Assembly (NCBI GenBank): GCA_016207165.1
Contig: JACQQD010000008.1
Span: forward strand, 112,386 to 176,385
DNA from: Candidatus Micrarchaeota archaeon
Lineage (GTDB): Archaea; Micrarchaeota; Micrarchaeia; Norongarragalinales; Norongarragalinaceae
DNA: 64,000 nucleotides
Direction: 5' to 3'
Shown here: piece after piece, positions 247-55,476 of the stretch
How the letters are laid out: every line of letters begins with the position of its first letter
Position numbering within the stretch: position 1 is the stretch's first letter
Program-made: the position numbers and the translations under genes
The notes under the pieces: model-generated
What the model was told of the DNA's origin: nothing
Database searches by the model: none
Seen by the model: only the letters and a program-made list of their open reading frames with translations

Positions 247-699
247 TTGGCCTCTCTTTTGACTTCCTTGAAAAAAGTCGTTTCCGCGTCCAAGAACGAT
301 CCGGTTCTGCGCCAGCGCCTCATCGCGCAAGCCATGTTGTTGGGCCAACTCAAGTACATCAAAAACAAGGTCTCGGCTCCGGCCAACGCGTGGCACGACG
401 CGGACGCCTTCGAGAAATTCATGTTTTCCGTTTTGAAGCCTTCCCGATTTGCCAAAGGCTGGACCCAGCGCATTCTGCACTCGTTTGTTTTGTCCATGGT
501 CTTGGCGCACGGCGACTCCAAGAAACTGCGGGCCAAAGCCGGCGCATTCTTGCAGAAGTTTGACAAGCGGTACCACAAGCTCTCCGCGTTTTTCGCGAAA
601 TCCCCAGGGTTCTTCGCCGCGTACCTTTCGGGGTTGAAGTTCCAGAAAGACGTTGTGACGGTTGGGTTGCTGCGGTGCCTCGCGACGCCGCGTCATTGA
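247..699 (+). CDS. Hypothetical protein (150 aa) whose last ~35 codons are the unit of the 3x direct repeat
   Basis: Intact ORF. The C-terminal FFAKSPGFFAAYLSGLKFQKDVVTVGLLRC segment is re-encoded in frame at 1633-1736 and 2710-2820. Confidence 0.45.
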   Translation: MASLLTSLKKVVSASKNDPVLRQRLIAQAMLLGQLKYIKNKVSAPANAWHDADAFEKFMFSVLKPSRFAKGWTQRILHSFVLSMVLAHGDSKKLRAKAGAFLQKFDKRYHKLSAFFAKSPGFFAAYLSGLKFQKDVVTVGLLRCLATPRH

Positions 700-700
700 C
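588..700 (+). repeat. Direct repeat copy A1 (~110 nt; 3' end of CDS 247..699)
   Basis: About 80-85% identical to 1633-1736 and 2710-2820. All three copies are in the same orientation. Confidence 0.8.
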
Positions 701-707
701 TCTTTGG

Positions 708-1229
708 CTATTCGTCTTTCAGGTGCTTTCGGCAAAGGTATTCCAATACACCGTCTTGCCAGCCCCGCGAATCAATCATTCTTAAAATCGCGTCATTGCC
801 TTGGTTTTTTGACCACGTGCCTTGCTTGACCAATTCCACGATCACGGCCGCACTAATCACGATGCGGATGCCCTCGGCTTGGGCCAAGCCGTCCAGTCTG
901 TAGCCGGCTTCCACGTCATCGCATACCAGCAGTGGAATTTTTTCCCGAATGCACAGTGTGAATGCGCTTGCTTCGCCCACGTCCACAAGTCCCGTCACCG
1001 ACGGCAAAACTCGGACGGGGGCCGCATCCATTTTTCCCGACTTGATTAAGGCGAGGATTTTTTTGGCTGCTTGACCGACTCGGTCGTCAAAACCAGCCAA
1101 TTCCTTGAGCTCGTCAACCACGGCCCTTGCAATCTTCCAGGAGACGATGGAAAACGAGGGTGTCAGAGCGCCAGCAAGTTCCAGGGAAACCAGGGCCGAA
1201 GTGTCCCCCGCCGCTGTTTTTAGTGCCAT
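708..1229 (-). CDS. PIN-like nuclease (DUF3368-type), putative toxin
   Basis: 173 aa. PIN-like acidic residue pattern. Lies immediately downstream of the RHH/UPF0175-like gene with a 6 nt gap. Confidence 0.5.
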   Translation of the reverse strand: MALKTAAGDTSALVSLELAGALTPSFSIVSWKIARAVVDELKELAGFDDRVGQAAKKILALIKSGKMDAAPVRVLPSVTGLVDVGEASAFTLCIREKIPLLVCDDVEAGYRLDGLAQAEGIRIVISAAVIVELVKQGTWSKNQGNDAILRMIDSRGWQDGVLEYLCRKHLKDE

Positions 1230-1235
1230 GCCGGT

Positions 1236-1547
1236 TTATCCCAAGCCTTGTTCAAACGACTTTTTGGCCGTGGAAACGAAAAAGGCGACTTTACGAGCTT
1301 CCTCGTATCCCAGCACTCGCACCAAGTCGTCAAAGAGGATTTGGCCTTCCGCAAATTTTTTCGCAACGATTTTCTTCATTTCGTTCAGCGACTGCTCCCG
1401 CGCGTAATATTCTTCGACGGCTTTCCGTACGATGGCCGAACGAACCTGCCGTTTGCCTTTGGCCAATATCTCGAGTTTCTTCTCCGTTTCAGGCTCCACG
1501 CGAACGTGAATGACGGATTCATGCGCCACGGCAACCCACCTCCACAT
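1236..1547 (-). CDS. RHH/UPF0175-like antitoxin
   Basis: 103 aa. N-terminal ribbon-helix-helix-like segment VRVEPETEKKLEILAKGKRQVRSAIVRKAVEEYY. Paired with the downstream PIN gene. Confidence 0.5.
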   Translation of the reverse strand: MWRWVAVAHESVIHVRVEPETEKKLEILAKGKRQVRSAIVRKAVEEYYAREQSLNEMKKIVAKKFAEGQILFDDLVRVLGYEEARKVAFFVSTAKKSFEQGLG

Positions 1548-1632
1548 CCAATGTAATACTTTGTATCACATATTAATGTTTCGGCGAATTGTCCATCCGA
1601 AAAAGGGCTGACAAGCCACGGCTGGCTTGCCT

Positions 1633-1736
1633 CGTTTTTCGCCAAGTCCCCGGAGTTTTTCGCCGCGTACTTGACGGGGTTGAAGTTCAAGAAAGACGCC
1701 GTCACGGCCGGGTTGCTGCGGTGCGTGGCCCGTTGA
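1633..1736 (+). repeat. Direct repeat copy A2
   Basis: Re-encodes FAKSPEFFAAYLTGLKFKKDAVTAGLLRCVAR-stop in frame. It is a duplicate of the 3' end of CDS 247..699. Confidence 0.8.
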
Positions 1737-1866
1737 TTTCCGTCGGCGTCAAGTACCTGTTGGCAATTGCTTTTCGGTTGCTTTGCAGAGGCTTGGAAAA
1801 CGGCTTAGTCTTTTCTTCGATCTGTTTTTGCCGTGGTTGCACTGCCAACGCGGTTTGTTTCTTTCC

Positions 1867-2169
1867 CTACTTTCCTTTGAGTAGCCGGGCGAGCGTTTTT
1901 TCCTCCTCGTCGTCCTCTCCGTAAAGCGCTTCGTCAACGCCCGTGTTTCTGAGGGCTTCCAGGACTTGGCGCGTGGAGACGTTGAGGCTCTCCGCAATTT
2001 TTCGAATCGAGTATCCTTTTTTCCGGAGGTCAGCCACGGTTTCATCCAGGAGCGCCTTGAGGAGGTATTGGCGGGCCACATCCACGCGTTTGAGGTAGTT
2101 TTGCTTGGCTTTGGCGTCCAGCACGTCCACGGCTTCCTTGGGCAAGCCCAAGTGAATGTATTTTGTCAT
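1867..2169 (-). CDS. HTH antitoxin-like protein (UPF0175-like)
   Basis: Internal Met start MTKYIHLGLPKEAVDVL. HTH-like segment GYSIRKIAESLNVSTRQVLEAL. Overlaps the upstream PIN gene by 4 nt. Confidence 0.45.
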   Translation of the reverse strand: MTKYIHLGLPKEAVDVLDAKAKQNYLKRVDVARQYLLKALLDETVADLRKKGYSIRKIAESLNVSTRQVLEALRNTGVDEALYGEDDEEEKTLARLLKGK

Positions 2170-2642
2170 GATTTGATTCCCTCCAAGTTCTTCAACGCGG
2201 TTTCGACTTTTTTTGTCCTCGGGTACGTGACGGAAAGTTTTTCCAGCCACGCAACCGCCGTCCGTCGTTCCACCACATCTTTTTTCGCCAGAAATTCGAT
2301 GAATGCCGGCGTGGAAAGAACGGCGATGTGCCGATTTCTTGCCGCCGCCATCAAAAGCCCGTCGTCGGTGACCAGAACGCATTCCCGTTTGCGTTGCGTG
2401 CACGTTTCCAGGAGGCTTGCATCGACGGGCGAGAGGTTGCGAAACGCGGAATCCGTCTTGGCGGCTTTGCTTTCAAGGATGGCCACGCATTCCGCCATCC
2501 TGACGCTTTTGATTTCGTCTTTCAGGTTGTGTCGCGCCTCGTCCAATACCGCCTGGATGCTGGCGGGGCGGACGATTCCCAGTGCCTGGACGTCAATTTC
2601 GGCCATGAACGTGAGGAACGTTGCATCCGCAACGTACAACAT
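2166..2642 (-). CDS. PIN domain protein, putative toxin
   Basis: 158 aa. Conserved Asp pattern (ATFLTF..D; VLVTDDG). Translationally coupled with the downstream HTH protein. Confidence 0.55.
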   Translation of the reverse strand: MLYVADATFLTFMAEIDVQALGIVRPASIQAVLDEARHNLKDEIKSVRMAECVAILESKAAKTDSAFRNLSPVDASLLETCTQRKRECVLVTDDGLLMAAARNRHIAVLSTPAFIEFLAKKDVVERRTAVAWLEKLSVTYPRTKKVETALKNLEGIKS

Positions 2643-2709
2643 GGCATTTTATTACAATTTGTAATTCTTAACCTTTTTGGTTTCCGGTCCTATTACTCCG
2701 TTGCGGATT

Positions 2710-2820
2710 CTTTTGTTCGCCAAGTCCCCGGAGTTCTTCGCCGCGTACCTTTCGGGATTGAAGTTCCAGAAGGACACCGTCACAACCGGGCTTCTGCGTT
2801 GCTTGGCTGTGGCCCGATAG
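2710..2820 (+). repeat. Direct repeat copy A3
   Basis: Re-encodes FAKSPEFFAAYLSGLKFQKDTVTTGLLRCLAVAR-stop. Third copy of the CDS 247..699 3' end. Confidence 0.8.
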
Positions 2821-5428: not shown

Positions 5429-7189
5429 ATGTCGGACGCCTCTTTTTCGGTTGCATCGGACGGCGAAAAACCGTCGTTGCCGTTAATTGGTTTGGCGGTG
5501 TTGGTGGTGTTGGCTGGCGCCGTAATCTTTTTGTCGCAAAATTCCACCACCCCGTTTCGTGACTTGGGTTCTCCGGCGCCCCCGCAAGCCGCTTCGGTTT
5601 CTGGCGTTGTTTCTTCCACGGAGTCTTTTTCGCTTTCCGGTGCCCAAGTCCGAGTCGATTCCGAGGTCTTCGTGGTTGGCGAACGCATGACGGAAAAAGT
5701 GGCTCTTGAAAGTTCCAGTGCTTGGACGGGTTACTTCGTGGAAGTGATTCCCAAAGAGTTTGCGGCTTCGGCTTCAAAATTGGATTTGAATGGATATTCG
5801 GACGTCCAAGTTCTGGAGGATGACCCCGTGATTGCCGTTCCCATCGTGCTTTCGCCTGGTAGCCCGGTTTCGTTGTCGAAAACCGGTTCCAGCACCAATC
5901 TCCGCTTGCTTCACTTCCTGGTTTCGGACGACGCGCTGTCGTCGGATGCGTCCGAGCGGAAAGAACAGCTCAGGCAAATTGCGGCGGCGTTTGGCGCGTT
6001 GGACTTCGAGCAGTTGCTGGTGTTCACCGGAAGTGACATTGAGGCGTTTCAAGGGGATGTTTCGGGTTTGTTGAGCGATTCGTCGAAGACTTTTCCGGAG
6101 CGCGTGGCCGCGTTGAAAGGGAAAGTCTCGGCGCAGACGTCGTCGGAGAACGTGGAAGCTGCTTTGAAGAGAAGCGAGAACAAGATTTACTTGGAACTCA
6201 ATCCGTATGCGCCTTCTTCGACGTACCGGTTGCCCGTGGTTTCGACGCGAGGCTCTGTCGAATTGACCCGCAATGCGTTTGCGCCTTTGTTGAAAGTGTC
6301 TGGGTTGGACGTGCCCCGGCTTGAGACGAACGTCGGTTTTTCCCAAAGCGTTGAGACCGATCCGTGGCTTGTCGAGGTGGCCGTCGACGCGTCTCGGGTT
6401 GAAACTTCAGGGGGCAAACTGGTTCTGGACGGCGAGCCATTGATCAACGCATTGGGGTCTTTGGATGTGCAATTCACCCAGGAATTGGACGTCAAGCAAA
6501 GCATTCCGTTTTTGGTTGAGTTCACGCAGCCGCCGGTTGCCGATTACTTGGCGTTTTATGTTCCCGCCATTTATTACGGGTCCACTGACGTGCCCTTCTT
6601 GATGAGAAACGACGCATCCATGGATTTCCAAGTCAGCGTGTGCGGTCAAGAACAAATTTTGTCTGCTGAAACTTGGCAAGTTCTTTACGTGTCTCCGGAA
6701 AAAATCGACGACTGCCAAATCACGCAGGGAACGGAAACCCTGGTCTTGGGCGGAAAGACGGGGTTGACGGCGATGCCGGTTCGCGTGGATTTGTCCAAAG
6801 AGGATTATTCGCCGGATGTCAAGGCGGCTTTGTCTGGGAATGGATACTTGTTCCACCGGTATGCCGTGCCGCTTTCCGAGTCGCCGTCGGATTACTGCTC
6901 CAACCGCTTGTGTACCTGCGATGCGGCCGTTGAATCGACCAAGAATTTGGTTCTTCGGGCAACGGAATTGAACCGCCTTTACCAGGCAACGCATGCTTCG
7001 ACTTTGGTGCTTTTGGATTCGACGGAAGCCGGTTGTGAATACGAATTTTCGGAGGATGGGCGACTTTCGCTTGAACCCGGTCTAAATGTCGTCCAAGCCA
7101 CTTTTTCCGAATCCAATGCGCACGACCAGCCATTCACCGTCGTGGTTTCAACTGAAAAAATAAAGGGCGGGTTCTTCGGGGCGGACTAA
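5429..7189 (+). CDS. N-terminally membrane-anchored surface protein, paralog of 2914..4350
   Basis: 586 aa. TM helix (LIGLAVLVVLAGAVIFL) followed by TPFRDLGSPAPP and VLEDDPVIAVPIV motifs matching the 478-aa protein. Confidence 0.55.
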   Translation: MSDASFSVASDGEKPSLPLIGLAVLVVLAGAVIFLSQNSTTPFRDLGSPAPPQAASVSGVVSSTESFSLSGAQVRVDSEVFVVGERMTEKVALESSSAWTGYFVEVIPKEFAASASKLDLNGYSDVQVLEDDPVIAVPIVLSPGSPVSLSKTGSSTNLRLLHFLVSDDALSSDASERKEQLRQIAAAFGALDFEQLLVFTGSDIEAFQGDVSGLLSDSSKTFPERVAALKGKVSAQTSSENVEAALKRSENKIYLELNPYAPSSTYRLPVVSTRGSVELTRNAFAPLLKVSGLDVPRLETNVGFSQSVETDPWLVEVAVDASRVETSGGKLVLDGEPLINALGSLDVQFTQELDVKQSIPFLVEFTQPPVADYLAFYVPAIYYGSTDVPFLMRNDASMDFQVSVCGQEQILSAETWQVLYVSPEKIDDCQITQGTETLVLGGKTGLTAMPVRVDLSKEDYSPDVKAALSGNGYLFHRYAVPLSESPSDYCSNRLCTCDAAVESTKNLVLRATELNRLYQATHASTLVLLDSTEAGCEYEFSEDGRLSLEPGLNVVQATFSESNAHDQPFTVVVSTEKIKGGFFGAD

Positions 7190-7192: not shown

Positions 7193-10100
7193 ATGCGTTT
7201 TTTTGTCTTCATTGTTTTCCTGGTGTTGGCGGGTTTGGCTTCATCCGCCGCCTTTGACTTGGCCAACCAACCCAAAGTCAGCGTATACATCGGCTCGGAT
7301 GCGTCCGTTCCCCATGCTTCCGGCGGGGCTTCGTACGCGTTTCGTTTGGCCGGCCCCGCCGTGGTCGGACCCAAGGGGATTGAGGCCAAAATCCAGGCCA
7401 CGCGTTCCGGCCAAGCCGAGTGTCCCGGTACAATCAAGGTCAACACGCAGGAGCAATACGCGTGCAACACGGTGTGCATTCGGTTGATTGGCTACCGGAC
7501 GCAAGCCGCCATTGATGCGGACAGCGCTTCCGGTCAACAACCTCTTTCCCAAGAGGACGCCATCGGCGAGCACGCTTTCATGCAAATAGGTTTGAAGTCA
7601 TCGGATGGCTCGTGTAATGTCGCGCCGACGGCCGCGGATGTCCAGGCCCTCGCGCAATCGTCGTCGAAAATGACTCCTGAAGAGCAGGCCCGCGCAAGCC
7701 AATCCATTTCCGGCGGCTATCACCGCTTCCTGAAAGACGTTTCAATCGATGTGGCGTTGCTGGCTGGCATCCGCTTCAAGCGGGCGACGCCGCAATACTT
7801 GGAGCACCCCCGTGAATTGACGGACTTGATGGCCAGCTTACACAAAGTGGAATACCTCGTCTTTCATGCCCCGACGTTTTTGGGCGTCCGCGATACCGTG
7901 GAACAATCCCAACTCGCGATTCGCGCGAATTCCGTGGAGTTGGCGTCAAGCGCCATTGCCTCCTGCGGCGCTCATCCCGCCTTTTTGGAGGAGTTTTCCG
8001 TGAATGGTTATGGGCCCAGTTCACTGTTTTCCGTTGGCCCCTCCGATGAATGGATTCGCTCGTCGTACAAGACGGCGGCTTCCTTGGATGAAGCCAAACA
8101 ATTTCTTTCCTGCATCGGGCAAATCAAGGGCGAAAAGGGGTACTTCTTTTTCGACCGGAAAATTGACCCCAAGACCATCACGCGCGCCTTGGAGGATCCA
8201 GGGTACACGTTTTTGACGGAGTACGACAAGTCCCGCCGGCAGGAAGGCAACCTGGATGTGACGCAAGCGGACCGCGTGGTTTTCGCCTACGAATTTGGCA
8301 AGTACCTGTATACGCAGAAAGAGGACGCCGACGCCATCAACGTGCTTTCCGCCGCGATTCTGGAAGCCGAGCGGTTGCGCATTCCCAACGTGGTTCACCC
8401 TCAAAGCGGTTTGGGACTCCAGAAAGACGCGTTTGACACCATCAACGCCGTTTTGGCGCGGCAGGGCCGGGAACCCATGGCGACGCTGGGCGGTTGCCTC
8501 AACGGCTTCTTGAATCCGCTTATCATCCTAAAACCTCTTCAGTTGCTCAAGATAGGTGCCAAGACCGGCGCCGTCATGTCTGCGGGCGGCCGCGTCATCC
8601 ACTTGGGCTTTGCTTTACAAGGCGGTCAGCAACTCATTGGCGCGGCCCAAACCGCGCAGGAGTCGGCTTTGGACTCCACCATTTCGGGTGTGTGCGGGAC
8701 GGTCATGTTTTTTGGCGGCCTGAAAGCGGGTCTGACGCGAGCCCCCGCGGCGTCTACGGAAATGGTTCGAACGCCTGAGACAGGCAAATGGGTGTCGCGT
8801 CCGGTCATTGGAGGCTCCAAGGCGGCGTCGGCGCGTGCCTTGGTCTTGAACAAGGAATTGGCGGATACCCCGGTTGAGTTGGTTGTACAACGCTTCACCA
8901 AGTTTTCAAGCCAGCTTAAACCCGGTGAATCCGCTGGAGAGTTTTTTGTGCGGTTGACGGTGAAAGGCAAAGAATTGACTATTCGCGTCACGCCCGAAAA
9001 CCATCGAGCCGTTTTGGCGGACGTGTTGCACATAAAGGCGACGCTGGCCATGGAAAAAGCAGACGCCGCCCAGTTTTCTCCCAGTTCCATCAAGGAGTTC
9101 CAGCAGGCGCTCTCGGAATTGTCGAAAGTGGATTCGGAGAAGGCATCATTCTACAACGAGTTCAATTTCCAGTTGAATGAACTGCTGAACGCCAAATCGA
9201 AGGAGGCCAAGCAGTCCATCCAGGAAAAACTCATCGGTTTGGTCTTCCAGCTATCCAAGCCTGAAAATAATCCCGCCAAGCAGCGCATCACGTTCTTGCA
9301 AGCGTTGCCTTCCGGCAAAGCCCAGACTCTGGATGGCTTGACCCCTGCCCAACCCCCTGGAACCGCTCAGCCCAGCGATCGCCGGACCCTCACGGAGCGC
9401 TTGCAAGCCGCGACGGAACTCTTCAAGAAGGCGAAAGAAAAGTTCGGCCGCAGCCTTTCGCGCGTGAAACAGTTCTTTTCGTTCAAGGACGGCCGGAGGA
9501 TTGAAGTTCCGGAAGAGGCGTCCAGCCAAATCGCGGACGCCCACGTGGCGGCGTCGGCGACCGGCGAAGCCCAACAAGTCGTTGTTGAGGTTTTGGTGAA
9601 CGGAAAGAAGCAGAACATGCCGGTGTTTGTTCGCCCTGGCGGAAAATTTTTGTCGATTGAGGAAATCAAGCAAGTGGCCAAAGACGGGAAAACCACGATT
9701 GCGGGAGTAGTTCGACTCGGGGAATTGGTCGTTTTTGATACCCGCCCCCAGAACCTGCGCTTTTTGCAAACTATTCGCCTCAATGACCTGCTTTCCGACT
9801 CCAGGCCCCTGCCTGCTCTTCGTGAATCGGTTACGGCGTTGGCGGATGCCGAAACCCTGTCAACTGATCCTTCAAGCGCCGGCAAGTCAACTCGTCCAGG
9901 TGACGCCGTCCAATTGCCTGAAACCCGCTGGAAGGATGCGTTGACGCGTCTGGGGTTAAGGCGAAATGGAAAATATGATGCCTACTACTTGGTTGAAGGT
10001 GCGGCGTTGCGGAATGGGGTTCCCCTCCGTTTCGAAGTGACTGGATCCGACAACCACGTCGGTTTTCTGGTTTTGAAAATCATCCGGAACAAAATTCCGG

Positions 10101-12775
10101 AAAGCATTCGCGACGCGACCATTGAAACGCTCAAGAAGGAGGGTTTCACGGAGCACTCCGACGGCACCGTGTTCTCGAAGGAAGTCGACGTCCGGGGCCA
10201 GCAGGTGCTCTTGGTTCCAAAGCCGGGAGCCACAGGCTTGGCCACCCCGATCTTGGATACCGTGGCACCGGAGTTCCAGGCCTTGATTAAAGAACTTTTG
10301 CCAAACGAAGGCCGCGCCCAACGCGTTGCAACCGTGGAGGAAGCCGAAGCCCTGCTTGGGGAAAAAGGTTTGCTGGCGGATCCAACCGCCAAGACCCAGG
10401 AAGGCGGCAACCCATTTGACCCCGGCAAACTTATTGAAGATCAAGCCGCCAAGGCCGAGCCCAATGCTCGTGAAGTGGCCGAGGAACAACGCCGGCTTGC
10501 GGAAGAGCAATCCAAAGTCGAACCGGTGCGCGCTCCAGTGCAAACCCAGGATGGGGTGTGGGAGGTTTCGGAAGGCCGTGGGTTGACTGTCGGTCGACTG
10601 ACCGCCAACCGAGTCGTTCTTCCATCCGAGTCCATTGCCCGCCGGCAAGGAACCTTTTCCGCGGATTCAAAGGACGGCGTCTTTTACGTCAACACTGGTT
10701 CAACGAGCGGATACAGGGTTATTCGGGGCCGCAACGAGCAGGAGTATCCGGGGAGCCACACGGAACCCGTTTCGCTTAAGGCGGGGGACTCCGTTGTATT
10801 CGCGGACGGTTCCCGCGTCGTCGTGGACTCTTATTCGCCGAAATCCGGTTCCGGGCCTGCGGTGGCCCGCTTCCGCGTTGAACCCGCGGAAACGTCTACG
10901 TCGCCCACCCTGGAAACTCTTCCGAGGACGAAAGGTGGTTCGTATTCGATTACGGGTTGCGCCGTTTGCCTGACGCAAAATCCGTTGGCCAGGGATTTCC
11001 TGGTTGACGAGGGCCAGAAGGCTTCGGTCGGACGCCAGGAAGGCAACACGATCATGTTTGAAAATGCGCATGTTAGCCGCGAGCAAGGAAGGTTCGACGT
11101 GGGCGCGCTGGGCGTTACTTACACGAACTTGGGCAGGTCGAACTTCTTTGCCGCTGTAATCGGGGGCCGCCGCCATGATTTTCCTCCGACGCACGGCGAG
11201 CCCATTTTGCTTGGCCCGTTTGATTCCATTCTTTACTTGAACGGCGAAAAAATCGTCGGCAGCATTACCGTTCAAGAGTTCGCGAAAGCCGCGTCGACGG
11301 GCAGTTCCCGGCTTTTGTTGCGCGTGGAGCGCGCTGGCTTCACTTCAACTCCGGAAACAGAGGGGGGGCCCGCAGTGACTCCGGAAAAAGCCGAGGCCAA
11401 CCGCGAGGCGTTTGAAAAGCCACCGGCGCGTGCGTCCGGCGCCAAGCCCAAACTTGAAGTGAAAAAAGCCGGAGTGGCCGAACAGGCCAAAGTGGGGGAA
11501 ACGGTATCCCAAGATTCTCTTTTGAGCATAGAACAAGGTGACCGGTCGGTGGATGTCGTCGCAGATGGCGTAGGCGGCGCGCTTGGAGGCAGAGTCGCGT
11601 CGCAAGCCTTTGTAAATGGGATTAATACCCGCTTTCCAGAAATGACGGATCAACTTTCGTTGGAAGAAGCCTTTAATGGAGCTGCAGGAGACACCGTCAG
11701 CGCGTTACGCCCTGTTTTAGAAGCAAACAAGTTTGACCGTGAGACTGGCGAGCCGTTGAATCCGCAGGGCGGCACCACGGCGTTGGTTCTTCTGATCAAC
11801 GGACGTAAAGCGCACCTCGCGGGCATCGGGGATGGTGCGTTGTTTATGATTCGCGGCGGTAATATTGAACTGTTATCGGAAATACACAACGACGCGTACG
11901 GCGCCCGCGGTCAGGTTGCGGGTTTGAGACCTGAGGACGCTTTCGTTGACAGAACCGAAGCCGGCGTAAATACGATGCGTAACTCCATTACCCGATCGAT
12001 TGACGCCGGGATATACGACGGGGAGTTCGAATCCTCTCAAGGCATCCCTCGGGGTCAGCATTTCTCTCGTGAATTCTCCGTACAAGACGGCGACCGGTTT
12101 ATTCTCGTTTCAGATGGCGTGGCGGATGTGGTCACGCCGACCGAGATTCGCGAGATTGGCAGACGGGGTACGCCGGAACAAGCCGCCCAAGCAATCTTGG
12201 CCTTGGCCCGACAGCGCATCTCCGGCCGGCATGAAGGCAACTTTGAAGGTCGCAAAATTCCCATCGACGGCAAGAACGACGACATTTCCGTCATCGTGCG
12301 GGATGTCGGCGAGCGGCCGGCTTCTGAGGAATCCTCTTCGGAGCCTTCGCGGTCCGAACCTGCGGTGGCGCGTTCGGCTCCTCCGGCAAGCATGGATTTG
12401 GAGCCGTTTACCCGGCTGATGCCTGCTGGGCCGACTTATTCCATTCGCATTGGCCGCGACGCCGTAAATGATGTGGTGTTGCCCAATGACTTCGTCAGCC
12501 GCTATCAGGGGGTGTTGCATTCGGATTCCTCCGGTCGGTTGTTTTACGAAAACGAAGGCGGATCCAATTCGTTTTGGCTTGGTCGTGGAGGCAGTTTGAC
12601 GGAGTTGTCGGGTCGCCGAACCATTGAACTGCGTGTTTTAGACTCGATTTTCTTTGCCGATGGAAGCCGAGTGTACTTCCGTCACCTTAACCCCGCTTAC
12701 CCCGGTTCGCTGCCAAGCGCGGTTTTCGACTTTTTCCCGAAATCCGTGGATGCCCCCGAATTTCAACCGACGTGA
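7193..12775 (+). CDS. Giant (1860 aa) signal-peptide protein with multiple FHA domains and a PP2C-type Ser/Thr phosphatase domain
   Basis: N-terminus MRFFVFIVFLVLAGLASSAAF. FHA-like segments at ~10.57-10.80 kb, ~10.95-11.26 kb and ~12.43-12.70 kb (IGRDAVNDVVLPNDFVSRYQGVLH). PP2C motifs DGVGG, GGTTA, GDGALF, SDGVADV and NDDISVIV at ~11.53-12.30 kb. Start is 4 nt after the stop of the upstream gene. Confidence 0.7.
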   Translation: MRFFVFIVFLVLAGLASSAAFDLANQPKVSVYIGSDASVPHASGGASYAFRLAGPAVVGPKGIEAKIQATRSGQAECPGTIKVNTQEQYACNTVCIRLIGYRTQAAIDADSASGQQPLSQEDAIGEHAFMQIGLKSSDGSCNVAPTAADVQALAQSSSKMTPEEQARASQSISGGYHRFLKDVSIDVALLAGIRFKRATPQYLEHPRELTDLMASLHKVEYLVFHAPTFLGVRDTVEQSQLAIRANSVELASSAIASCGAHPAFLEEFSVNGYGPSSLFSVGPSDEWIRSSYKTAASLDEAKQFLSCIGQIKGEKGYFFFDRKIDPKTITRALEDPGYTFLTEYDKSRRQEGNLDVTQADRVVFAYEFGKYLYTQKEDADAINVLSAAILEAERLRIPNVVHPQSGLGLQKDAFDTINAVLARQGREPMATLGGCLNGFLNPLIILKPLQLLKIGAKTGAVMSAGGRVIHLGFALQGGQQLIGAAQTAQESALDSTISGVCGTVMFFGGLKAGLTRAPAASTEMVRTPETGKWVSRPVIGGSKAASARALVLNKELADTPVELVVQRFTKFSSQLKPGESAGEFFVRLTVKGKELTIRVTPENHRAVLADVLHIKATLAMEKADAAQFSPSSIKEFQQALSELSKVDSEKASFYNEFNFQLNELLNAKSKEAKQSIQEKLIGLVFQLSKPENNPAKQRITFLQALPSGKAQTLDGLTPAQPPGTAQPSDRRTLTERLQAATELFKKAKEKFGRSLSRVKQFFSFKDGRRIEVPEEASSQIADAHVAASATGEAQQVVVEVLVNGKKQNMPVFVRPGGKFLSIEEIKQVAKDGKTTIAGVVRLGELVVFDTRPQNLRFLQTIRLNDLLSDSRPLPALRESVTALADAETLSTDPSSAGKSTRPGDAVQLPETRWKDALTRLGLRRNGKYDAYYLVEGAALRNGVPLRFEVTGSDNHVGFLVLKIIRNKIPESIRDATIETLKKEGFTEHSDGTVFSKEVDVRGQQVLLVPKPGATGLATPILDTVAPEFQALIKELLPNEGRAQRVATVEEAEALLGEKGLLADPTAKTQEGGNPFDPGKLIEDQAAKAEPNAREVAEEQRRLAEEQSKVEPVRAPVQTQDGVWEVSEGRGLTVGRLTANRVVLPSESIARRQGTFSADSKDGVFYVNTGSTSGYRVIRGRNEQEYPGSHTEPVSLKAGDSVVFADGSRVVVDSYSPKSGSGPAVARFRVEPAETSTSPTLETLPRTKGGSYSITGCAVCLTQNPLARDFLVDEGQKASVGRQEGNTIMFENAHVSREQGRFDVGALGVTYTNLGRSNFFAAVIGGRRHDFPPTHGEPILLGPFDSILYLNGEKIVGSITVQEFAKAASTGSSRLLLRVERAGFTSTPETEGGPAVTPEKAEANREAFEKPPARASGAKPKLEVKKAGVAEQAKVGETVSQDSLLSIEQGDRSVDVVADGVGGALGGRVASQAFVNGINTRFPEMTDQLSLEEAFNGAAGDTVSALRPVLEANKFDRETGEPLNPQGGTTALVLLINGRKAHLAGIGDGALFMIRGGNIELLSEIHNDAYGARGQVAGLRPEDAFVDRTEAGVNTMRNSITRSIDAGIYDGEFESSQGIPRGQHFSREFSVQDGDRFILVSDGVADVVTPTEIREIGRRGTPEQAAQAILALARQRISGRHEGNFEGRKIPIDGKNDDISVIVRDVGERPASEESSSEPSRSEPAVARSAPPASMDLEPFTRLMPAGPTYSIRIGRDAVNDVVLPNDFVSRYQGVLHSDSSGRLFYENEGGSNSFWLGRGGSLTELSGRRTIELRVLDSIFFADGSRVYFRHLNPAYPGSLPSAVFDFFPKSVDAPEFQPT

Positions 12776-12905: not shown

Positions 12906-13655
12906 TCATTTCGGCATTTTCTGGATGGCGAGGCGGGCGGCGTCATCAAAATCCACGGGGTTGGGGCTCAAGGCGTTCATTTCCGTTTTCCAGATTTTTT
13001 CGGTTTGCCGTACGCGTTTTTGGAATTCATTGGCGTTGAAGGTTTTTTCGTAGTACGTCAGTTTGCCGTTGACGAGTTCTTTGTCGGGGACGGCGTTTCT
13101 TCGTAAAAGAAAGTAGAGGTCGTACAGGTCGCGGGCGGATTGGCGGGTGAGGATGGCGCGGATTTTTTCGGCGGCGATTTCCGTTGCGTCCATGGTCTTG
13201 AGTGCGTAGGGGAACACGTCGGGATACGGCGGTTGAATGCTGGTGATGACGGGTTCCAGACGCGTTTTTTCGCGTAGGCTGAATTCAAGTTGCACCGTGC
13301 ATTCGCTGATGGGTTTTCCCATGTAAAGCGGGCCGCGGACGCGCAGTTTGGCGGTTTTCGAAACGGGGGTTTGACTGGTTTTCCACGTGGGTTCGGAAAA
13401 GCCCGCTGAAGCCAAAAACGCGGAGGCATTATCTGCGTCGGGTTGTTCTTCCTGGTCCGCCAGCGTAAAGTCCAAGTCCTCGGAGTAGCGGGGAAGCTGG
13501 AAGGCTTTCTGGAGGCAGGTGCCTCCCTTGAAGACGCCGGCAAACCCGGTGCGCGACAAGTACGACAAAAGCCAGTGCTGGACGTAGTCTTTCTCTTTTT
13601 GGCCTAATGTGAATCCCGGCGGCCCGTATTGGTCGAGTCCTTTCCGGTCAAGCAT
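12906..13655 (-). CDS. abiEii: AbiEii-type nucleotidyltransferase toxin (DUF1814)
   Basis: 249 aa. GGTCLQKAF..YSEDLDF nucleotidyltransferase motif. Overlaps the upstream AbiEi-like gene by 8 nt. Confidence 0.65.
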   Translation of the reverse strand: MLDRKGLDQYGPPGFTLGQKEKDYVQHWLLSYLSRTGFAGVFKGGTCLQKAFQLPRYSEDLDFTLADQEEQPDADNASAFLASAGFSEPTWKTSQTPVSKTAKLRVRGPLYMGKPISECTVQLEFSLREKTRLEPVITSIQPPYPDVFPYALKTMDATEIAAEKIRAILTRQSARDLYDLYFLLRRNAVPDKELVNGKLTYYEKTFNANEFQKRVRQTEKIWKTEMNALSPNPVDFDDAARLAIQKMPK

Positions 13656-14214
13656 GGCGCATCAGGTTTTTCAGGCGTTTGTTGGCGGCGGCGCTGGACA
13701 AGTAAGGCGGAATTTTTCCGGCTTTGACGTGGGCCAGTGCTTCCATGATGATGGCCGCCGGACAGCTTTTGGGGATGCTGATGGCGTCGGCCACGGCTTT
13801 TTCGGGTGTGGCCAGGAACAGGTTGTCTTTTTTCTCGTAGGCCCGGAACTGGTTTTTAGGGACGCGGTATTCCTGGACGGGTGTTCCAAGGACCTGATAC
13901 TTTTTTGCGTTGCGCGTGACGGCAAGCTGGATGGTGCGGTGGGGTTGTGTGGTCAATCCGTGCAAGTGCAATGCGGTGTGGAAAGACACGTAGGCGGGGG
14001 TTGAAATCTCGCAGGCAACGGCTTCATGCATGGCATCGGAAAACGCCCACCAACCGCGATGGACCAAAAAAAGGACGCCTTTTTTGTGGAGGCGATGCAG
14101 GTGCAGACGCGCGTACGCCGGGTTTTGGGCCAAGGCGACGAATTCTTTGGTGCGGAAGGCGGCGCGCCCGGAACCCCGAAGAATTTCTATGATTTTATTG
14201 CTTTTCATTATCAA
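13648..14214 (-). CDS. abiEi: AbiEi-like antitoxin/transcriptional regulator
   Basis: 188 aa. Gene order and overlap with the AbiEii gene. N-terminal wHTH-like region. Confidence 0.55.
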   Translation of the reverse strand: MIMKSNKIIEILRGSGRAAFRTKEFVALAQNPAYARLHLHRLHKKGVLFLVHRGWWAFSDAMHEAVACEISTPAYVSFHTALHLHGLTTQPHRTIQLAVTRNAKKYQVLGTPVQEYRVPKNQFRAYEKKDNLFLATPEKAVADAISIPKSCPAAIIMEALAHVKAGKIPPYLSSAAANKRLKNLMRHA

Positions 14215-14320: not shown

Positions 14321-15433
14321 TCAGGGTAAGTAGATTTTTTCGTAGGCTTTCGTGGTGTTATCCCAGTTGAATTGCTTGAGGACTTTCTTTCGGCCGTTTC
14401 GACCGAATTTCTTGGAGGTTTTCGGGTCGGCCAAAAGTTCGTTGGTTTTTTGGGCCAGGAGCTTCGGGTTTTTCGGTGGAACCAAGAAGCCGTTTTGGTT
14501 TTGGTCCACGACTTCGGGAATGCCGCCGGTTGTGGTTGAAACTACGGGTTTTCCGGAGGCCATGGCTTCAAGCAAAACCATGCCGAAGGGCTCCCACAGT
14601 GAGGGAAGGACGAAGACGTCGCAGGCGGCGTAGTATTGGGCGATCACGTCTTCGGACAGCTCGTCGGTGATGAAGGTGACGGGCGCCTTCTTTTTTTTCG
14701 CGTATTTTTTCAGGGTTTTTTCAAGGGGCCCGCGTCCAATGATGACGGTGTCGGCGTTGATTTCCAGGGAGGCGTCGATGAGGTATTTGAGGCCTTTTTG
14801 TTTGACGAGGCGTGCGACGCACAAGACGAATGGTTTTTCGTGGGGTGCGTTTGGGGTTTGTTTTCTCGGTTTGAAGACGTGGGCGTCAACTCCGTTGTAG
14901 GCCACGGCCTTTTTTCCGTGGAATTTTTTGGGGAGGGTGATGTCCAGCGTGTTTTGGCTGACTCCGAGGATTCCGGTGCACGCGTTCATTACAGTTGAAC
15001 CTATGGTGTCGTCAAAGGCTTGGCCCCAAAAGTCGGTGGCCACGTCAATGCCTGTGGTTCGGGCGTTGTGCAGGGTCAAGTACAAGGGAACGCCGTATTT
15101 TTTGGAGGCGGCCACTAGGTCCAGTCCATAAAAGAATCGGTTGTGGGCGTGGACGAGGTCCATGTGCGGCAAAAGTTTGGCGAGGTCTTTGGCGTGGTCC
15201 GGCATGATGGGGATGGGTGGGACGAGGGGTTGGGGTAAGTCTTCCAGGACCCAGGCGTTGGAGCGTACTAAGTGCATGCCGTGAAGGTCCTCTTTTTTTG
15301 GGGTGTTGGGCAGCTTTGCGGTCAGGACCGTGACGTCGTGGTTCTTGGAGAGCCGTTTGCCGACTTCCAGGACGTGTTTTTCGGTGCCGCCTTGGTAGGG
15401 GGAAAAAAAGGGGTTGAGCATGAGGATGCGCAT
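14321..15433 (-). CDS. Glycosyltransferase family 4
   Basis: GT4 signature EPFGMVLLEAMASGKPVV. Probable true start MRILMLNPFF at 15433. The longer ORF to 15523 adds a non-conserved N-terminal extension. Confidence 0.7.
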   Translation of the reverse strand: MRILMLNPFFSPYQGGTEKHVLEVGKRLSKNHDVTVLTAKLPNTPKKEDLHGMHLVRSNAWVLEDLPQPLVPPIPIMPDHAKDLAKLLPHMDLVHAHNRFFYGLDLVAASKKYGVPLYLTLHNARTTGIDVATDFWGQAFDDTIGSTVMNACTGILGVSQNTLDITLPKKFHGKKAVAYNGVDAHVFKPRKQTPNAPHEKPFVLCVARLVKQKGLKYLIDASLEINADTVIIGRGPLEKTLKKYAKKKKAPVTFITDELSEDVIAQYYAACDVFVLPSLWEPFGMVLLEAMASGKPVVSTTTGGIPEVVDQNQNGFLVPPKNPKLLAQKTNELLADPKTSKKFGRNGRKKVLKQFNWDNTTKAYEKIYLP

Positions 15434-15618
15434 GCTAATGGTGACGGTGGAATTGGATTTAAAGCGTGACGGCTGACACGGGAAGAATTGTTTGTTGGTT
15501 ATGTTTTCGTTCGTCGGTTCCATTCGCGTCGTATTCGCTTGACGTATTTACTTCCGCTTCCTTTTTCATTTTTCCAAAGTCCCGCGGCGTTGTCCATGAC
15601 TTTTTTTCTGAGTTTTAT

Positions 15619-17191: not shown

Positions 17192-17491
17192 TCAGAGGGG
17201 TGTGGCGTGTTGGAGGACGTCCTTGATGATGACTGAGGTTTTCGATACTTTTTGGAATTCGTCGGGGGTATAGCACAGCAAGTCCGCCACAATGGGCACA
17301 TCGGTGTGGCGCCAAATAAGGCCTCCCCGGTTCACGAATGGTGTTGCCTTGAATTTTTGGCTGATGATGATCAAGTCGTAGTCGGATTGGGCTTTGGCGG
17401 TGCCTTTGGCCCGGCTTCCGAACAAGTAGATTTTGGCGTCGGAAAAAAGGAGGCGTATGTCCTTCAGTAAGGCGCTTAGTTTTTCATCCAT
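17192..17491 (-). CDS. Minimal nucleotidyltransferase (MNT, pol-beta superfamily), orphan
   Basis: 99 aa. LFGSRAKGTA..SDYDL motif. No HEPN partner adjacent. Confidence 0.55.
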   Translation of the reverse strand: MDEKLSALLKDIRLLFSDAKIYLFGSRAKGTAKAQSDYDLIIISQKFKATPFVNRGGLIWRHTDVPIVADLLCYTPDEFQKVSKTSVIIKDVLQHATPL

Positions 17492-17729
17492 GTCTCAATC
17501 AGTTCCAGGCCTTCTTGTGCGTCGGCCTTTTTTTAGTAGGTTGTTGCCGGATGGCTTTTGTTTTTTCCGGTGCGCGCCTTCCAACCGTCTCTTCGTCGTT
17601 TGTCGAATTGGGTTGGCGTTTAAAGGAGGTGTCCGCGTTGTTTTCTTAAAGAGCCTTAGGCGTTTCCATGCCCGTCTTGCGGGGTTCATGGAAGGCGGTT
17701 TGGGTTTTTTTTGAAGAGGTGTTAAGGAA

Positions 17730-18098
17730 ATGGCTGGAAAAAGCATGTGGCCGATGTTGGGCGCGTACGCGTTCATCGTGGGCGTAGTGTTGGCAATCGT
17801 GTTGGGTGTATTGATTCCGCCGAACGCGTGGTTGTTGGCGGGCTTGTCCATCTTGGGGTTGCTCGTGGCGCTTTTGAACGTCACGGAAAAGGAAGTCCAC
17901 GACTACTTGTTGGCCAACGTTACGGTGATCATTGGCGCGAACGCGTTTAACGTCATGGTCACGTCTTTGGCGTCGCCGTTGGGCTTGGGTGCCATGGCGA
18001 CGACGCTGCAGACGATTACGTCGAACCTGGTGTTCTTCGTGGCTCCAGGCGCCGTTTTGGTGGCCCTCAAGGAAATCTATCAGTTGGCCCGCAACTAA
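17730..18098 (+). CDS. Small integral membrane protein (3 predicted TM)
   Basis: 122 aa, strongly hydrophobic. Confidence 0.4.
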   Translation: MAGKSMWPMLGAYAFIVGVVLAIVLGVLIPPNAWLLAGLSILGLLVALLNVTEKEVHDYLLANVTVIIGANAFNVMVTSLASPLGLGAMATTLQTITSNLVFFVAPGAVLVALKEIYQLARN

Positions 18099-18151: not shown

Positions 18152-19144
18152 CTATTTCAATAGTTCGGCTTTCTTCAAGGCGTTGAGGTCTTTGGATCGC
18201 GTCAGAAACATTGTGGTTTTCAGTTCGTGCTTGTATTTCTGGATGGCTTGCCGCACGCCCGAAACGCCGGCGTGTTGTTGGGCTTTGATGAAGGGGGACG
18301 CGGCGCCAGCCAGGGTGGCGCCCAATCGGATGGCTTTGGCGGCTTCCAACCCGGAGCGAATGCCGCCGGAGGCAATTAATGGGACTTTGACGGCTTTGGC
18401 GCATTGGGCTAGGGCTGAAGCGGTGGGGATGCCAAAGTCCCAGAACACGTCTCCGCTTAATCCGTGGCGGTGGTGTTCCACGGCGGACCAGGACGTACCG
18501 CCGGTGCCGGACACGTCGATGGCTTTCACGCCGGCTTTTTGGAGTTCCTTGGCGATGGTGACGTTGATGCCGGCTCCGACTTCTTTGGCGATGACTGGCA
18601 CCCGGAGGGCGTCACAGGTGTCCGCGATTTTTGCGAGGATTCCGTTCCAGTTCTTGTCGCCTTCGGGTTGCACGGCTTCCTGCAAGGGATTCAGGTGGAT
18701 GCAGAGCGCGTCGGCATTAATGGCGTCCACGAGCCACTGGATTTGCTTGAGGGAGTATTGCTTGAGTTGGTAGGCTCCGATGTTGCCGCATAGGAAGAGG
18801 CCTTTCTGTTTGACGGCGTAGGTTTTGGAAAGCGTGGGGTCCTCCAGCATGGCGCGTTGGCTGCCGACGGCGAAAACGATGCCTTCTTGGGCGCAGGCTT
18901 GCGCGATTTCGGAATTGATTTTTTGGGCGTCGGTATATCCTCCAGTCATGCCGGTGACCATGAATGGCGCTTTGAGGGCGTGGCCTAAAAACGTGGTTTC
19001 CAAGTTGACGGCGTGGAAGTCTTGTTCCGGCAAGGCATAGTAATTGAATCGGATGGCGTCAAAGCCGTTGCTTTGGTGGCCTTGGACGTCTTGGTTCAAG
19101 ACGATGTCGACGTGTTCGCCTTTGCGTTTCTGGGTTTGCTTCAT
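18152..19144 (-). CDS. fni: Isopentenyl-diphosphate delta-isomerase type 2 (FMN-dependent)
   Basis: TIM-barrel IDI-2 motifs (FMVTGMTGG, VSGTGGTSW, ASGGIRSG). Start taken at MKQTQKRK (19144). The longer ORF would overlap the upstream gene. Confidence 0.75.
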   Translation of the reverse strand: MKQTQKRKGEHVDIVLNQDVQGHQSNGFDAIRFNYYALPEQDFHAVNLETTFLGHALKAPFMVTGMTGGYTDAQKINSEIAQACAQEGIVFAVGSQRAMLEDPTLSKTYAVKQKGLFLCGNIGAYQLKQYSLKQIQWLVDAINADALCIHLNPLQEAVQPEGDKNWNGILAKIADTCDALRVPVIAKEVGAGINVTIAKELQKAGVKAIDVSGTGGTSWSAVEHHRHGLSGDVFWDFGIPTASALAQCAKAVKVPLIASGGIRSGLEAAKAIRLGATLAGAASPFIKAQQHAGVSGVRQAIQKYKHELKTTMFLTRSKDLNALKKAELLK

Positions 19145-19160
19145 ATGACGGTTTACTCCT

Positions 19161-22020: not shown

Positions 22021-22054
22021 AAACCCTTAAACCTTTGCGTACAGTTTTCCGTAA

Positions 22055-23101: not shown

Positions 23102-23117
23102 CTTTTTTTGGGTTGGC

Positions 23118-23795: not shown

Positions 23796-23811
23796 ATATT
23801 TTTTATACTTT

Positions 23812-52959: not shown

Positions 52960-53241
52960 ATGGCTCGTTCAAAGGACCTTCAAATCACGAAGATGTCGTC
53001 CCGCGGCCAAATCGTCATTCCGGAAGGCATCCGGGACGAACTGGACCTGCACGCCGGATCCACGTTCGTCGTATTCGGAAAAAAGGAAGCGGATGCCATC
53101 ATGCTGAAAAAACTGGAGTTTCCCGAACCGAGCAAAGCCTTTGACGAAATGGCGCAATGGGGAGAAAAACACGCCAAATCGAAAGGGTTGGATACGTCCG
53201 CCAGCAGAATCGTTGAAAACCAGCACAAACGCAGAAAATGA
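52960..53241 (+). CDS. AbrB/SpoVT-type antitoxin
   Basis: KMSSRGQIVIPEGIRDEL looped-hinge-helix motif. 4 nt overlap with the downstream PIN gene. Confidence 0.6.
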   Translation: MARSKDLQITKMSSRGQIVIPEGIRDELDLHAGSTFVVFGKKEADAIMLKKLEFPEPSKAFDEMAQWGEKHAKSKGLDTSASRIVENQHKRRK

Positions 53242-53651
53242 CTTCCCTTCCAAGCGTGGTTTTTGACACGAACGTCCTGGTGTCCGCCATCTTGTCCACG
53301 AAAGGGGCCTCATACGCACTGGTGCGCCTCGCTGCCGAGGGAAAAATCGTCGGCTACACGTCCAAGACGCTGATGGATGAATTCCGGGAGATCATCCAGC
53401 GGGATTACGAAGTCTCGCCGGAGAGGGCCAACCGCATGGTCGACGTGTTCCTGCAGTTCCTGAAAATAGTCGACCCCACCATTCGACTGGACGCCGTCCG
53501 CGAAGATCCGGATGACAACCGTGTTTTGGAATGCGCCGCCATGGCCAACGCGAAATTCGTGGTTTCCTGGGATCCGCACCTCACCAAACTTGGCAGGTTC
53601 GAGGAGATTCAAATCTTGAATCCGGGAAAAATGCTCGGTTTGCTGAAGTAA
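53238..53651 (+). CDS. vapC: VapC-like PIN-domain toxin
   Basis: VVFDTNVLVSAI N-terminus and PIN acidic residues. Confidence 0.65.
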   Translation: MTSLPSVVFDTNVLVSAILSTKGASYALVRLAAEGKIVGYTSKTLMDEFREIIQRDYEVSPERANRMVDVFLQFLKIVDPTIRLDAVREDPDDNRVLECAAMANAKFVVSWDPHLTKLGRFEEIQILNPGKMLGLLK

Positions 53652-54519: not shown

Positions 54520-54522
54520 TAA

Positions 54523-55476
54523 TCATTCCAAATATTTGACGTAAATCTTGAAGAACTTTTCATGCGTCTCCTTAAGCCGCGCATAAAGAAAATTCTCCAA
54601 AGTGATGGTTCGACCGTTGTCCGCATCTTCCAGAGCTGAAAAGTAGGACAGCCGCTGCGTTTTGCGGATGATGAGTGGAGGGTAGCCAGCTTGCAACAAC
54701 ATGGCGTTGATGAGGAAGCGACCGACGCGGCCGTTGCCATCTTCGAAAGGATGGATTTGTTCGAAACGGCCGTGAAATTCAGCTGCGAGTTGCAGCGGGT
54801 GCTTTTTGGAGCGGTTTTCCTCAAACCAGACAAATAGCTCGCCCATTTGTTTTGCGACGCCTTCCGGCGGCGTGGTGAGCACTTGCCGGCCGTGGATGTA
54901 ATTGGGCAGTTGCTTGTAGCCCGTAGCGATTCCCATGTCCTTGACGAGAATCGAGTGCATTTTGTGCATGTCCTTTTCGCGGACTTTGAGTTTGCCCCGC
55001 AAAATAAGGTCAATGACTTGCCGGGAATTACGGGTTTCGTAGATTTCGCGCAAGTTTTTGCCCGGAATGGCGACGTTTTCATGAATGACGATGGCAACGT
55101 CCTTGAGAGTCAACGAGTTTCCTTCAATGGCGTTGGATTCGTAGGTGAAGTTAACGGTGAAGCGGTCGAACAAATCGGTTTTTTGGGCATCCGTCATCTT
55201 CGACATCAGTTTGCGGTATTCCAACCGCATGCGTTCCATTTTTTCAGGCGCCGAAAGGTCTCGTAGTTTCAGCGAGGCATAGTGCTTTTTCGCGAAACGA
55301 ACCCGAGCTTCAACCTCTTTTTGTTCAAAATAATCCTCAAGTTCCCGATTGTTTTTGCCGGTTCGGCCTTGGACGCGCTTGGCTATTTTGTGCACCCGAC
55401 CGTCCGGTAAGCGGATGGACTTGACCGCATACAGATAGTCTTTGCCTTTGATGCGCTTTTGAGCGAAATGAGCCAC
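54523..55476 (-). CDS. fic: Fic-family protein (class II-like, putative AMP transferase)
   Basis: HPFEDGNGRVGRFL Fic motif. Upstream TYESNAIEGNSL segment matches the [ST]xxxE[GN] inhibitory motif. Start codon is GTG. Confidence 0.75.
   Translation of the reverse strand: MAHFAQKRIKGKDYLYAVKSIRLPDGRVHKIAKRVQGRTGKNNRELEDYFEQKEVEARVRFAKKHYASLKLRDLSAPEKMERMRLEYRKLMSKMTDAQKTDLFDRFTVNFTYESNAIEGNSLTLKDVAIVIHENVAIPGKNLREIYETRNSRQVIDLILRGKLKVREKDMHKMHSILVKDMGIATGYKQLPNYIHGRQVLTTPPEGVAKQMGELFVWFEENRSKKHPLQLAAEFHGRFEQIHPFEDGNGRVGRFLINAMLLQAGYPPLIIRKTQRLSYFSALEDADNGRTITLENFLYARLKETHEKFFKIYVKYLE

Follow-up and report, generated by a model that had tools for sequence, protein, structure and literature searches.

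The stretch analyzed here is a window of 64,000 nucleotides from contig JACQQD010000008.1 of a Candidatus Micrarchaeota archaeon, an assignment with which its protein accessions agree. Near its start lies gene X (HY572_04275), whose 3' end is present three times, the copies being separated by two intervals of ~0.95 kb that each hold a two-gene operon of toxin-antitoxin (TA) type. The first-pass annotation had proposed serial insertion of elements that carry a replacement gene end, and this is well supported by an occupancy series among relatives of the locus, by the synonymous bias of the differences between the copies, and by recurrence of the same arrangement at two genes of another contig (L020). 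The more specific reading, that two unrelated TA-type operons entered the end of gene X serially by conservative recombination and that each brought a gene end with it, is probably correct. The style of insertion into gene ends is already known; what is new here is that miniature, TA-only, recombinase-less cassettes are stacked at gene ends in DPANN archaea. The features of the locus are listed in Table 1.

The last ~105 nt of gene X have two further downstream copies in direct orientation, and the aligned segments comprise positions 579-683, 1625-1729, and 2703-2807. Copy 2 was aligned by blastn with copy 1 and with copy 3 at 84% identity in either case (95 nt and E = 4e-25 for both); for copies 1 and 3, the identity is 89% in a 63-nt alignment and 78% in one of 93 nt. 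The recurrence of the gene end at ~80-85% identity in the same orientation, as described previously, is confirmed at 82-84%, and the aligned repeats are homologous to the coding sequence at 247..699 rather than unrelated to it. A 38-nt core pattern of the repeat had no matches in 100 shuffles, and no further copy of the gene X end was detected in the 64-kb window at the DNA or peptide level. Each copy runs to an in-frame stop (at 699 in copy 1, 1736 in copy 2, and 2820 in copy 3), and the encoded peptides are ..FFAKSPGFFAAYLSGLKFQKDVVTVGLLRCLATPRH, ..FFAKSPEFFAAYLTGLKFKKDAVTAGLLRCVAR, and ..LFAKSPEFFAAYLSGLKFQKDTVTTGLLRCLAVAR, respectively, each followed by the stop. All contain the core peptide ..FAKSP(E/G)FFAAYL(S/T)GLKF(Q/K)KD.VT.GLLRC.., so that the earlier description of one C-terminal peptide and stop encoded three times holds for the core and for the stops; it does not hold for the final 3-6 residues, which vary by copy (LATPRH in copy 1, VAR in copy 2, and LAVAR in copy 3). 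No ATG, GTG, or TTG is available as an in-frame start in copy 2, and weaker homology possibly extends this copy back to ~1609 across a 2-nt indel. Logan contigs from two runs of one study match the locus with 100% identity along 12,642 and 1,511 nt, and therefore the three-copy structure is not an assembly artifact. Gene X itself belongs to a conserved family of ~145-residue proteins with a C-terminal ..LLRC.. sequence, the homologs of which (P0002 and P0009-P0014) come from related metagenomic contigs. Comparison with Pfam, NCBIfam, PADLOC, and PDB profiles gave nothing significant for this protein.

Each of the two intervals, 700-1624 and 1737-2702, holds a single operon of two genes on the minus strand, together with a palindrome and a TATA-like box. 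Both are fully occupied by the two TA-type genes, with no element-encoded integrase. The two operons are unrelated to each other, and therefore the locus is not a tandem duplication of a single unit. In cassette 1, the toxin gene and gene X converge, with their stops 8 nt apart. The toxin matches PF11848 (DUF3368) in the precomputed annotation. Its AlphaFold model, with five homologs included, has a predicted local distance difference test score (pLDDT) of 91, and its top Foldseek matches in the PDB are the PIN domains of AF0591, VapC4, SMG6, and PAE2754; residues D9, E86, D104, and D105 are invariant in five homologs. The predicted structure verifies the assignment as a PIN fold with conserved acidic residues, and toxicity is a prediction. 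The antitoxin matches ribbon-helix-helix (RHH) and related profiles at E values (RHH_1, 0.003; RelB-like, 0.002) that both fall short of the curated cut-offs, and its homologous partners in L020, L021, and L022 match RHH_1. The ATG is preceded, at a distance of 23-30 nt, by the TATA-like box ATTAATAT. Homologous pairs of RHH and DUF3368-PIN genes in L018/L019 (one sequence), L020, L021, and L022 have a palindrome of similar form and a TATA box upstream, and an exact 17-mer palindrome is common to the window (1553-1569) and L022 (204-220), the proteins of which are only 63% identical. Cassette 1 combines a PIN toxin, an adjacent upstream DNA-binding antitoxin, and a palindromic putative operator, as is typical of type II VapBC systems. 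One candidate for cassette 1 in another context, L002, was rejected, being the same locus with a gene called on the wrong strand.

In cassette 2 the putative toxin comes first in the operon, a 158-residue protein being followed by a protein with an RHH region and a helix-turn-helix (HTH). The latter is 45% identical to its L003 counterpart, which passes the RHH_1 and HTH_58 cut-offs, and the former is 27% identical to the product of L003 5641..6102. The 158-residue protein has no match in Pfam, NCBIfam, PADLOC, or the PDB (phmmer), its single-sequence AlphaFold model is unusable (pLDDT 46), and hhalign gives a probability of 3.6% for its relationship to the PIN1 family; its DxT.., ..D.., and ..TDD motifs were judged by eye only. 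The TATA-like sequence TTAAGAAT is located 22-29 nt upstream of the ATG. The first-pass annotation had placed a complete pair of PIN toxin and antitoxin with its own promoter-like region in each interval. The two-gene operons, TATA-like boxes, and palindromes bear this out for both intervals, as does the PIN toxin for cassette 1, but in cassette 2 the PIN assignment is putative.

Four kinds of locus were compared, all of which have in common at least the upstream gene of 187-196 codons. In the order L023-25, L026, L003, and the window, they contain 0, 0, 1, and 2 cassettes and 1, 1, 2, and 3 gene ends. In L023-25, where gene X has 38% amino acid identity to that of the window, there is a single end and the next gene begins 22 nt on. 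L026 (57% identity) also has a single end, with the tail ..LLKCLAVAR before the stop and no adjoining TA genes. In L003 (83% identity), one plus-strand cassette lies between two ends, of which the distal one is frameshifted; this cassette is a distant homolog of cassette 2 (27 and 45% amino acid identity for the two proteins) in the opposite orientation. Because the cassettes of the window are unrelated and that of L003 is distant and oppositely oriented, the insertions were independent events and not copies of one duplicated unit. The relatives compared (38-83% amino acid identity) are too distant to give an exact pre-insertion site. The tail of copy 3, CLAVAR before the stop, is the same as that of L026, suggesting that copy 3 is most likely the original gene end. 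As judged from these sequences, the locus represents an insertion polymorphism at gene X. An ancient fixed duplication, the outcome that had been named as contradicting serial insertion, was not seen in this comparison, in which single ends are present in L023-25 and L026 and two ends with one cassette in L003. Neither does the locus have the features of a tandem gene duplication, since only the last ~35 codons recur, the operons are unrelated, and the copy number varies among relatives. No relative of gene X was retrieved from GTDB representative genomes with protein patterns, and a degenerate DNA pattern for KSPEFFAAY gave chance bacterial matches only. Three bacterial methyltransferase loci matched in a metagenome scan were rejected, because they have the WHDADAF sequence in common with it by chance only.

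Gene X of L026 (GCA_053535395.1, 6498-6945) is interrupted in frame by two stops, of which the first is a TAG (codon 109) and the second a TAA further on, and its reading frame is otherwise maintained. Recoding, an error of sequencing, or a recent origin as a pseudogene may account for this. The first of these stops is close to the position of the left border of the repeat region in the window.

The divergence between the copies was computed over 32 aligned codons (96 nt), in which there are no indels. The dN/dS values are 0.16 for copies 1 and 2, 0.12 for copies 1 and 3, and 0.26 for copies 2 and 3, and the excess of synonymous differences is significant in each comparison (Fisher p = 1e-3, 4e-5, and 0.012, respectively), including the last, in which one orphan is compared with the other. 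As no start codon is in frame in copy 2, the coding-like conservation seen there must be a relic of the past. The pattern fits orphans that earlier served as real gene ends, whether these were imported alleles or the host gene's own end at successive stages. Too few changes are unique to copy 2 (about three synonymous and two conservative) to separate these two origins, and the corresponding comparison in L003, where the orphan is 69% identical to its own gene end and 70-74% identical to the window copies, is indecisive. Lineage-specific differences are distributed in patches, those of copy 1 at the left and right and those of copy 2 only in the middle.

Parallel cases were found in L020 (JGI contig Ga0434945_005832), which was reached via homologs of the cassette 1 PIN toxin. 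Two gene-end duplications (5894-6687 and 7747-8728) bracket two-gene cassettes in this contig. One lies in a gene for an FAD oxidoreductase, where a cassette of two minus-strand genes is enclosed by a repeat of 57-67 nt (90-93% identical) from within the gene end; the functional gene has acquired a new 8-codon tail, and its original tail, of 17 codons, is left as an orphan 10 nt ahead of the following gene. The other involves a convergent NTP-transferase gene. Here a 35-nt repeat (97%) that corresponds to the last 10 codons and the stop encloses an RHH and DUF3368-PIN pair with 45% identity to cassette 1 and the same relative orientation. In this case as in the window, the toxin gene ends next to the live gene end, and the promoter is on the side of the orphan and adjoins it. 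All five cassettes (two in the window, one in L003, and two in L020) are 0.66-0.98 kb in length and consist of the operon only, with margins of <135 nt. The target-derived direct repeats at the window, L003, and L020, together with the single-end sites in relatives, are the features expected of gene-end elements. A TA island in L018 (GCA_053535435.1, 3451-5971), which was reached via a PIN1 homolog, was rejected as a parallel. It has three diverged paralogs of a gene of ~115-175 codons interleaved with TA pairs, and its repeats are whole paralogous genes and not gene ends.

A second repeat system in the window, at 51393-55661, is associated with an intron-containing tRNA gene (51393-51500), a feature in keeping with an archaeal genome. 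Repeats A (51486-51605 and 53775-53894; 85% identical) begin in the last ~14 nt of the tRNA, and a third copy of the tRNA-end core is present near 55640. Repeats B (52785-52908 and 54524-54647) are also 85% identical; B2 is where a minus-strand Fic/DOC gene (54523..55476) has its 3' end, and B1 is an orphan copy of that end. Repeats C (53692-53793 and 55561-55661) are 76% identical. The region reads as two related, recombinase-less integrated elements of ~2 kb in tandem at the 3' end of the tRNA gene, one with a pair of AbrB/MazE and PIN_3 genes (52960..53651) and the other with the Fic gene. Its GC content is low (0.47-0.50), and no integrase was found in it by Pfam or PHROGs. These tandem elements were counted in support of serial insertion at gene X.

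The proposed mechanism is recombination of the conservative, Campbell type at the gene X end, inside its final ~105 nt, the incoming DNA carrying its own copy of that end. After each event gene X would read into a fresh functional end, now represented by copy 1, and the previous end would be displaced downstream as an untranslated orphan, as copies 2 and 3 may have been. The addictive TA pair would then guard the insert against loss by recombination between the flanking repeats. We infer a circular intermediate, this order of events, and an enzyme of one of three kinds: a recombinase supplied in trans by the host or by another element, host recombination acting on ~100 nt of homology, or a recombinase that was lost as larger elements decayed. 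Because the cassettes encode no recombinase, action in trans or host homologous recombination would account for their movement. The earlier reading, that mobilization in trans is implied, was overstated, since it is one of these three options, beside host homologous recombination and the decay of recombinase-bearing elements.

Several observations weigh against this account. No recombinase, including Phage_integrase, was found in the window; the search covered 40 ORFs (open reading frames) of the 64 kb, 30 of them with Pfam and 10 with PHROGs, and the previous statement that none accompanies the cassettes is borne out within these limits. No free or episomal form was found, nor any copy on viral contigs, IMG/VR containing no match for the gene X repeat, the PIN1 family, or the tRNA-linked repeat. 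A crossover core, which precise alignment of the three copies had been expected to define, could not be mapped: merging of adjacent lineage-specific changes gave 11 runs as compared with ~12 expected, and this clustering is not significant (hand count). At ~105 nt and 82-84% identity, the repeats exceed typical cores of attachment (att) sites in both length and divergence, only two close relatives are present in the databases so that the comparative series is thin, and the synonymous bias of copy 3 would also be explained if the orphans were fossils of successive states of the functional end.

This last point bears on the possibility that insertion duplicates 35-105 nt of the target in situ and that each orphan is a fossil of the end that the host gene itself had when the insertion took place, a reading we regard as improbable. 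The repeat derives from the target in every case and differs in length from one target to another (35, 57-67, and ~105 nt), the younger-looking repeats of L020 are 93-97% identical, and synonymous bias of the changes specific to copy 3 is predicted here as well. However, we know of no transposition mechanism that makes duplications of this length. DDE/casposase target-site duplications are ≤15 bp as compared with the 35-105 nt of these repeats, and the cassette borders have no terminal inverted repeats. The orphans differ mainly at synonymous sites when compared with each other and have no indels in the segment analyzed, the L003 orphan resembles the window copies at least as closely as it does the end of its own gene, and copy 1 retains six nucleotides that are absent from copy 2. 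Somewhat less improbable, but still unlikely, is that the cassettes are stripped remnants, larger integrase-bearing viruses or plasmids having decayed to undeletable TA modules and att copies, so that units of 1 kb were never mobile. DPANN genomes are small and streamlined, in line with such decay. The tRNA-linked elements of the window, with their extra ORFs, resemble elements decayed in this way, and in bacteria both the decay to att-flanked, integrase-less cis-mobilizable elements (CIMEs) and their tandem accretion are documented (PMC5704250). Against this reading, all five cassettes consist of the operon and its short margins with no gene fragments. The orphan repeat, which has no function, is kept in five of five cases, whereas random deletion should often have removed it, and a homolog of cassette 1 is found at a different target gene with its orientation unchanged. 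For these three reasons, mobility of the minimal ~1-kb unit itself is favored.

Two other explanations concern the repeats themselves. If copies 2 and 3 were small genes or regulatory elements kept for a function of their own, their open frames to the stop, the TTG start and gene call of copy 3, and the coding-like conservation of both orphans would be accounted for. This is very unlikely, given that copy 2 is without an in-frame start, that the distal copy in L003 is frameshifted, that relatives with an intact gene X have no extra copies, and that both orphans lie upstream of, and outside, the TA transcription units. An integron-like array, in which the repeats would be attC-type folded sites recombined by an IntI-type integrase, is harder still to credit. 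In its favor are only a loose resemblance, of the kind noted in the first-pass annotation, in that short cassettes alternate with recurring elements of ~100 nt, and the frequent presence of TA cassettes in chromosomal integrons, according to references cited in PMC9668308. Folding of both strands of the three copies gave z values of +0.43 to +1.39 relative to 200 shuffles, with nearly empty centroid structures; in this test of attC-like single-strand folding, which had been suggested, the repeats thus fold no better than shuffled sequence, and this effectively refutes an array of this type. The repeats are moreover coding sequence conserved at the peptide level, the cassettes have their own promoters and are on the opposite strand, and no integrase match was found in the 40 ORFs of the window that were scanned, so the comparison with integron organization is rejected. 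The accompanying remark that integrons have not been described in archaea is outdated, as they have been reported there (PMC9668308).

Serial insertion by recombination at the gene end has precedents in several known systems, none of which it matches in full. Archaeal mobile elements integrate in the 3'-distal part of protein genes, and the sites are re-used in tandem to give arrays (PMC6563490). The window resembles these elements in the insertion into the end of a protein gene, the flanking direct repeats, the supply of a new stop and tail with orphaning of the original, the tandem arrays, and the empty sites in relatives. The known elements are larger, include integrases or casposases, and have att sites of 8-69 bp that are near identical, whereas the cassettes of the window are ~1 kb, comprise only a TA operon, carry no recombinase, and are flanked by a ~105-nt repeat of 82-84% identity. 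In the accretion of ICESt1 and ICESt3, the target is the 3' end of fda. The CIMEs and tandem accretion of these Streptococcus thermophilus elements have been reviewed (PMC5704250). The architecture of the window is that of CIMEs, att-flanked and integrase-less units being stacked at the end of a target gene. The mobility of CIMEs depends on a recombinase from another element, and they are bacterial decay products of conjugative elements, usually assorted remnants, in contrast to the uniform TA-only operons seen here in DPANN archaea. For the latter, neither a helper element nor an autonomous relative was found in the data that could be searched. Integron gene cassettes likewise form arrays of ~1-kb, recombinase-less units with a recurring site between them and TA modules that stabilize the array. 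Within the window, however, there is no attC hairpin, IntI/attI platform, common orientation, or shared promoter logic, and the recurring site is a copy of the coding end of a host gene.

IMEX (integrative mobile elements exploiting Xer) are integrase-less and integrate at dif via the host Xer recombinase. Like the cassettes, they lack an integrase and occur in tandem, and their site-specific integration with a borrowed host recombinase is what movement of the cassettes in trans would resemble. They target dif, whereas the target here is the end of a coding gene and no dif-like site was identified. Tandem arrays of IMEX are cited, via Das et al. 2013, in PMC6563490. With Type II VapBC systems the window shares the RHH antitoxin, the PIN toxin, the palindrome, and a location in variable regions, homologous pairs being found in a different context in each genome. 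The vapBC loci of Sulfolobus islandicus are reported to be flanked by degenerate copies of insertion sequences (PMC3718332); in the window the flanks are instead duplicated ends of the target gene, with no insertion sequence remnants. It is possible, although rather doubtful, that Micrarchaeota (DPANN) possess a class of ~1-kb, non-autonomous integrative cassettes with a self-regulated TA operon as sole cargo, which use a captured 3' end of the target gene as att site, are moved in trans by a recombinase of the host or a helper or else through homologous recombination of excised circles, and form integron-analogue arrays at gene ends without attC or IntI.

Table 1. Features of the gene X locus in the window (control regions were read from the sequence)
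Feature	Position	Strand	Description
Target gene X	247..699	+	HY572_04275, 150 aa; last gene of the operon in which the window begins
Copy 1	579..699	+	Gene end in current use, ..LLRCLATPRH then stop
Cassette 1 toxin	708..1229	-	PIN-domain protein, DUF3368 type, HY572_04280; toxicity predicted
Cassette 1 antitoxin	1236..1547	-	Ribbon-helix-helix (RHH) protein, 6 nt upstream of toxin
Cassette 1 control region	1553..1577	-	Palindrome GTAATAC-N3-GTATCAC and TATA-like ATTAATAT
Copy 2	1625..1736	+	Orphan gene end, ..LLRCVAR then stop
Cassette 2 regulator/antitoxin-like	1867..2172	-	RHH then HTH; HTH_7 E = 1.5e-4
Cassette 2 putative toxin	2166..2642	-	158 aa, HY572_04295; PIN-like acidic motifs only
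Cassette 2 control region	2652..2671	-	Palindrome TTACAATTTGTAA and TATA-like TTAAGAAT
Copy 3	2703..2820	+	Orphan gene end, ..LLRCLAVAR then stop; inside NCBI 47-aa ORF HY572_04300 (2677..2820), TTG start

The region from gene X to a glycosyltransferase gene (14321..15523) differs in content from L026 and behaves as a variable island. It includes a 1860-residue ORF (7193-12775) with PP2C phosphatase and faint FHA matches, which is preceded by several ORFs without a known family, and a gene for an AbiEii toxin (12906..13655) that adjoins a 188-residue partner (module 12906-14214). In the relatives, giant proteins of 1331-3301 residues are encoded upstream of gene X instead. Beyond the island are a minus-strand pair of small genes (17192..17884), which like the AbiEii module is of addiction or defense type, and, at 18152-28279, a mevalonate-pathway cluster, as expected for an archaeal chromosome, with genes for HMG-CoA reductase, an HMG-CoA synthase-like protein, thiolase, a diphosphomevalonate decarboxylase-like protein, and an FMN-dependent dehydrogenase. 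For the pair of small genes, precomputed annotation of the matching Logan contig assigns the ORF that adjoins a 417-residue Beta-Casp gene to a 99-residue, MNT-like NTP_transf_2 protein.

The spread of chromosomal TA modules is a long-standing loose end, as they are evidently mobile but usually have no mobility machinery. Here, insertion footprints are preserved for five cassettes at four targets in three genomes, in the form of a duplicated end, a replaced tail, and orphaned original ends, and they include a datable stack of cassettes at one gene. If the ~1-kb unit of TA operon and gene end is itself mobile, it would be the smallest type of integrative element described in archaea, and it would offer a testable route of TA dispersal in streamlined DPANN genomes, by a circular intermediate together with either RadA-dependent recombination or a recombinase that acts in trans. 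Should the cassettes be no more than remnants, the locus would show instead that addiction modules outlive the elements that delivered them and that a gene end can be replaced serially without loss of function.

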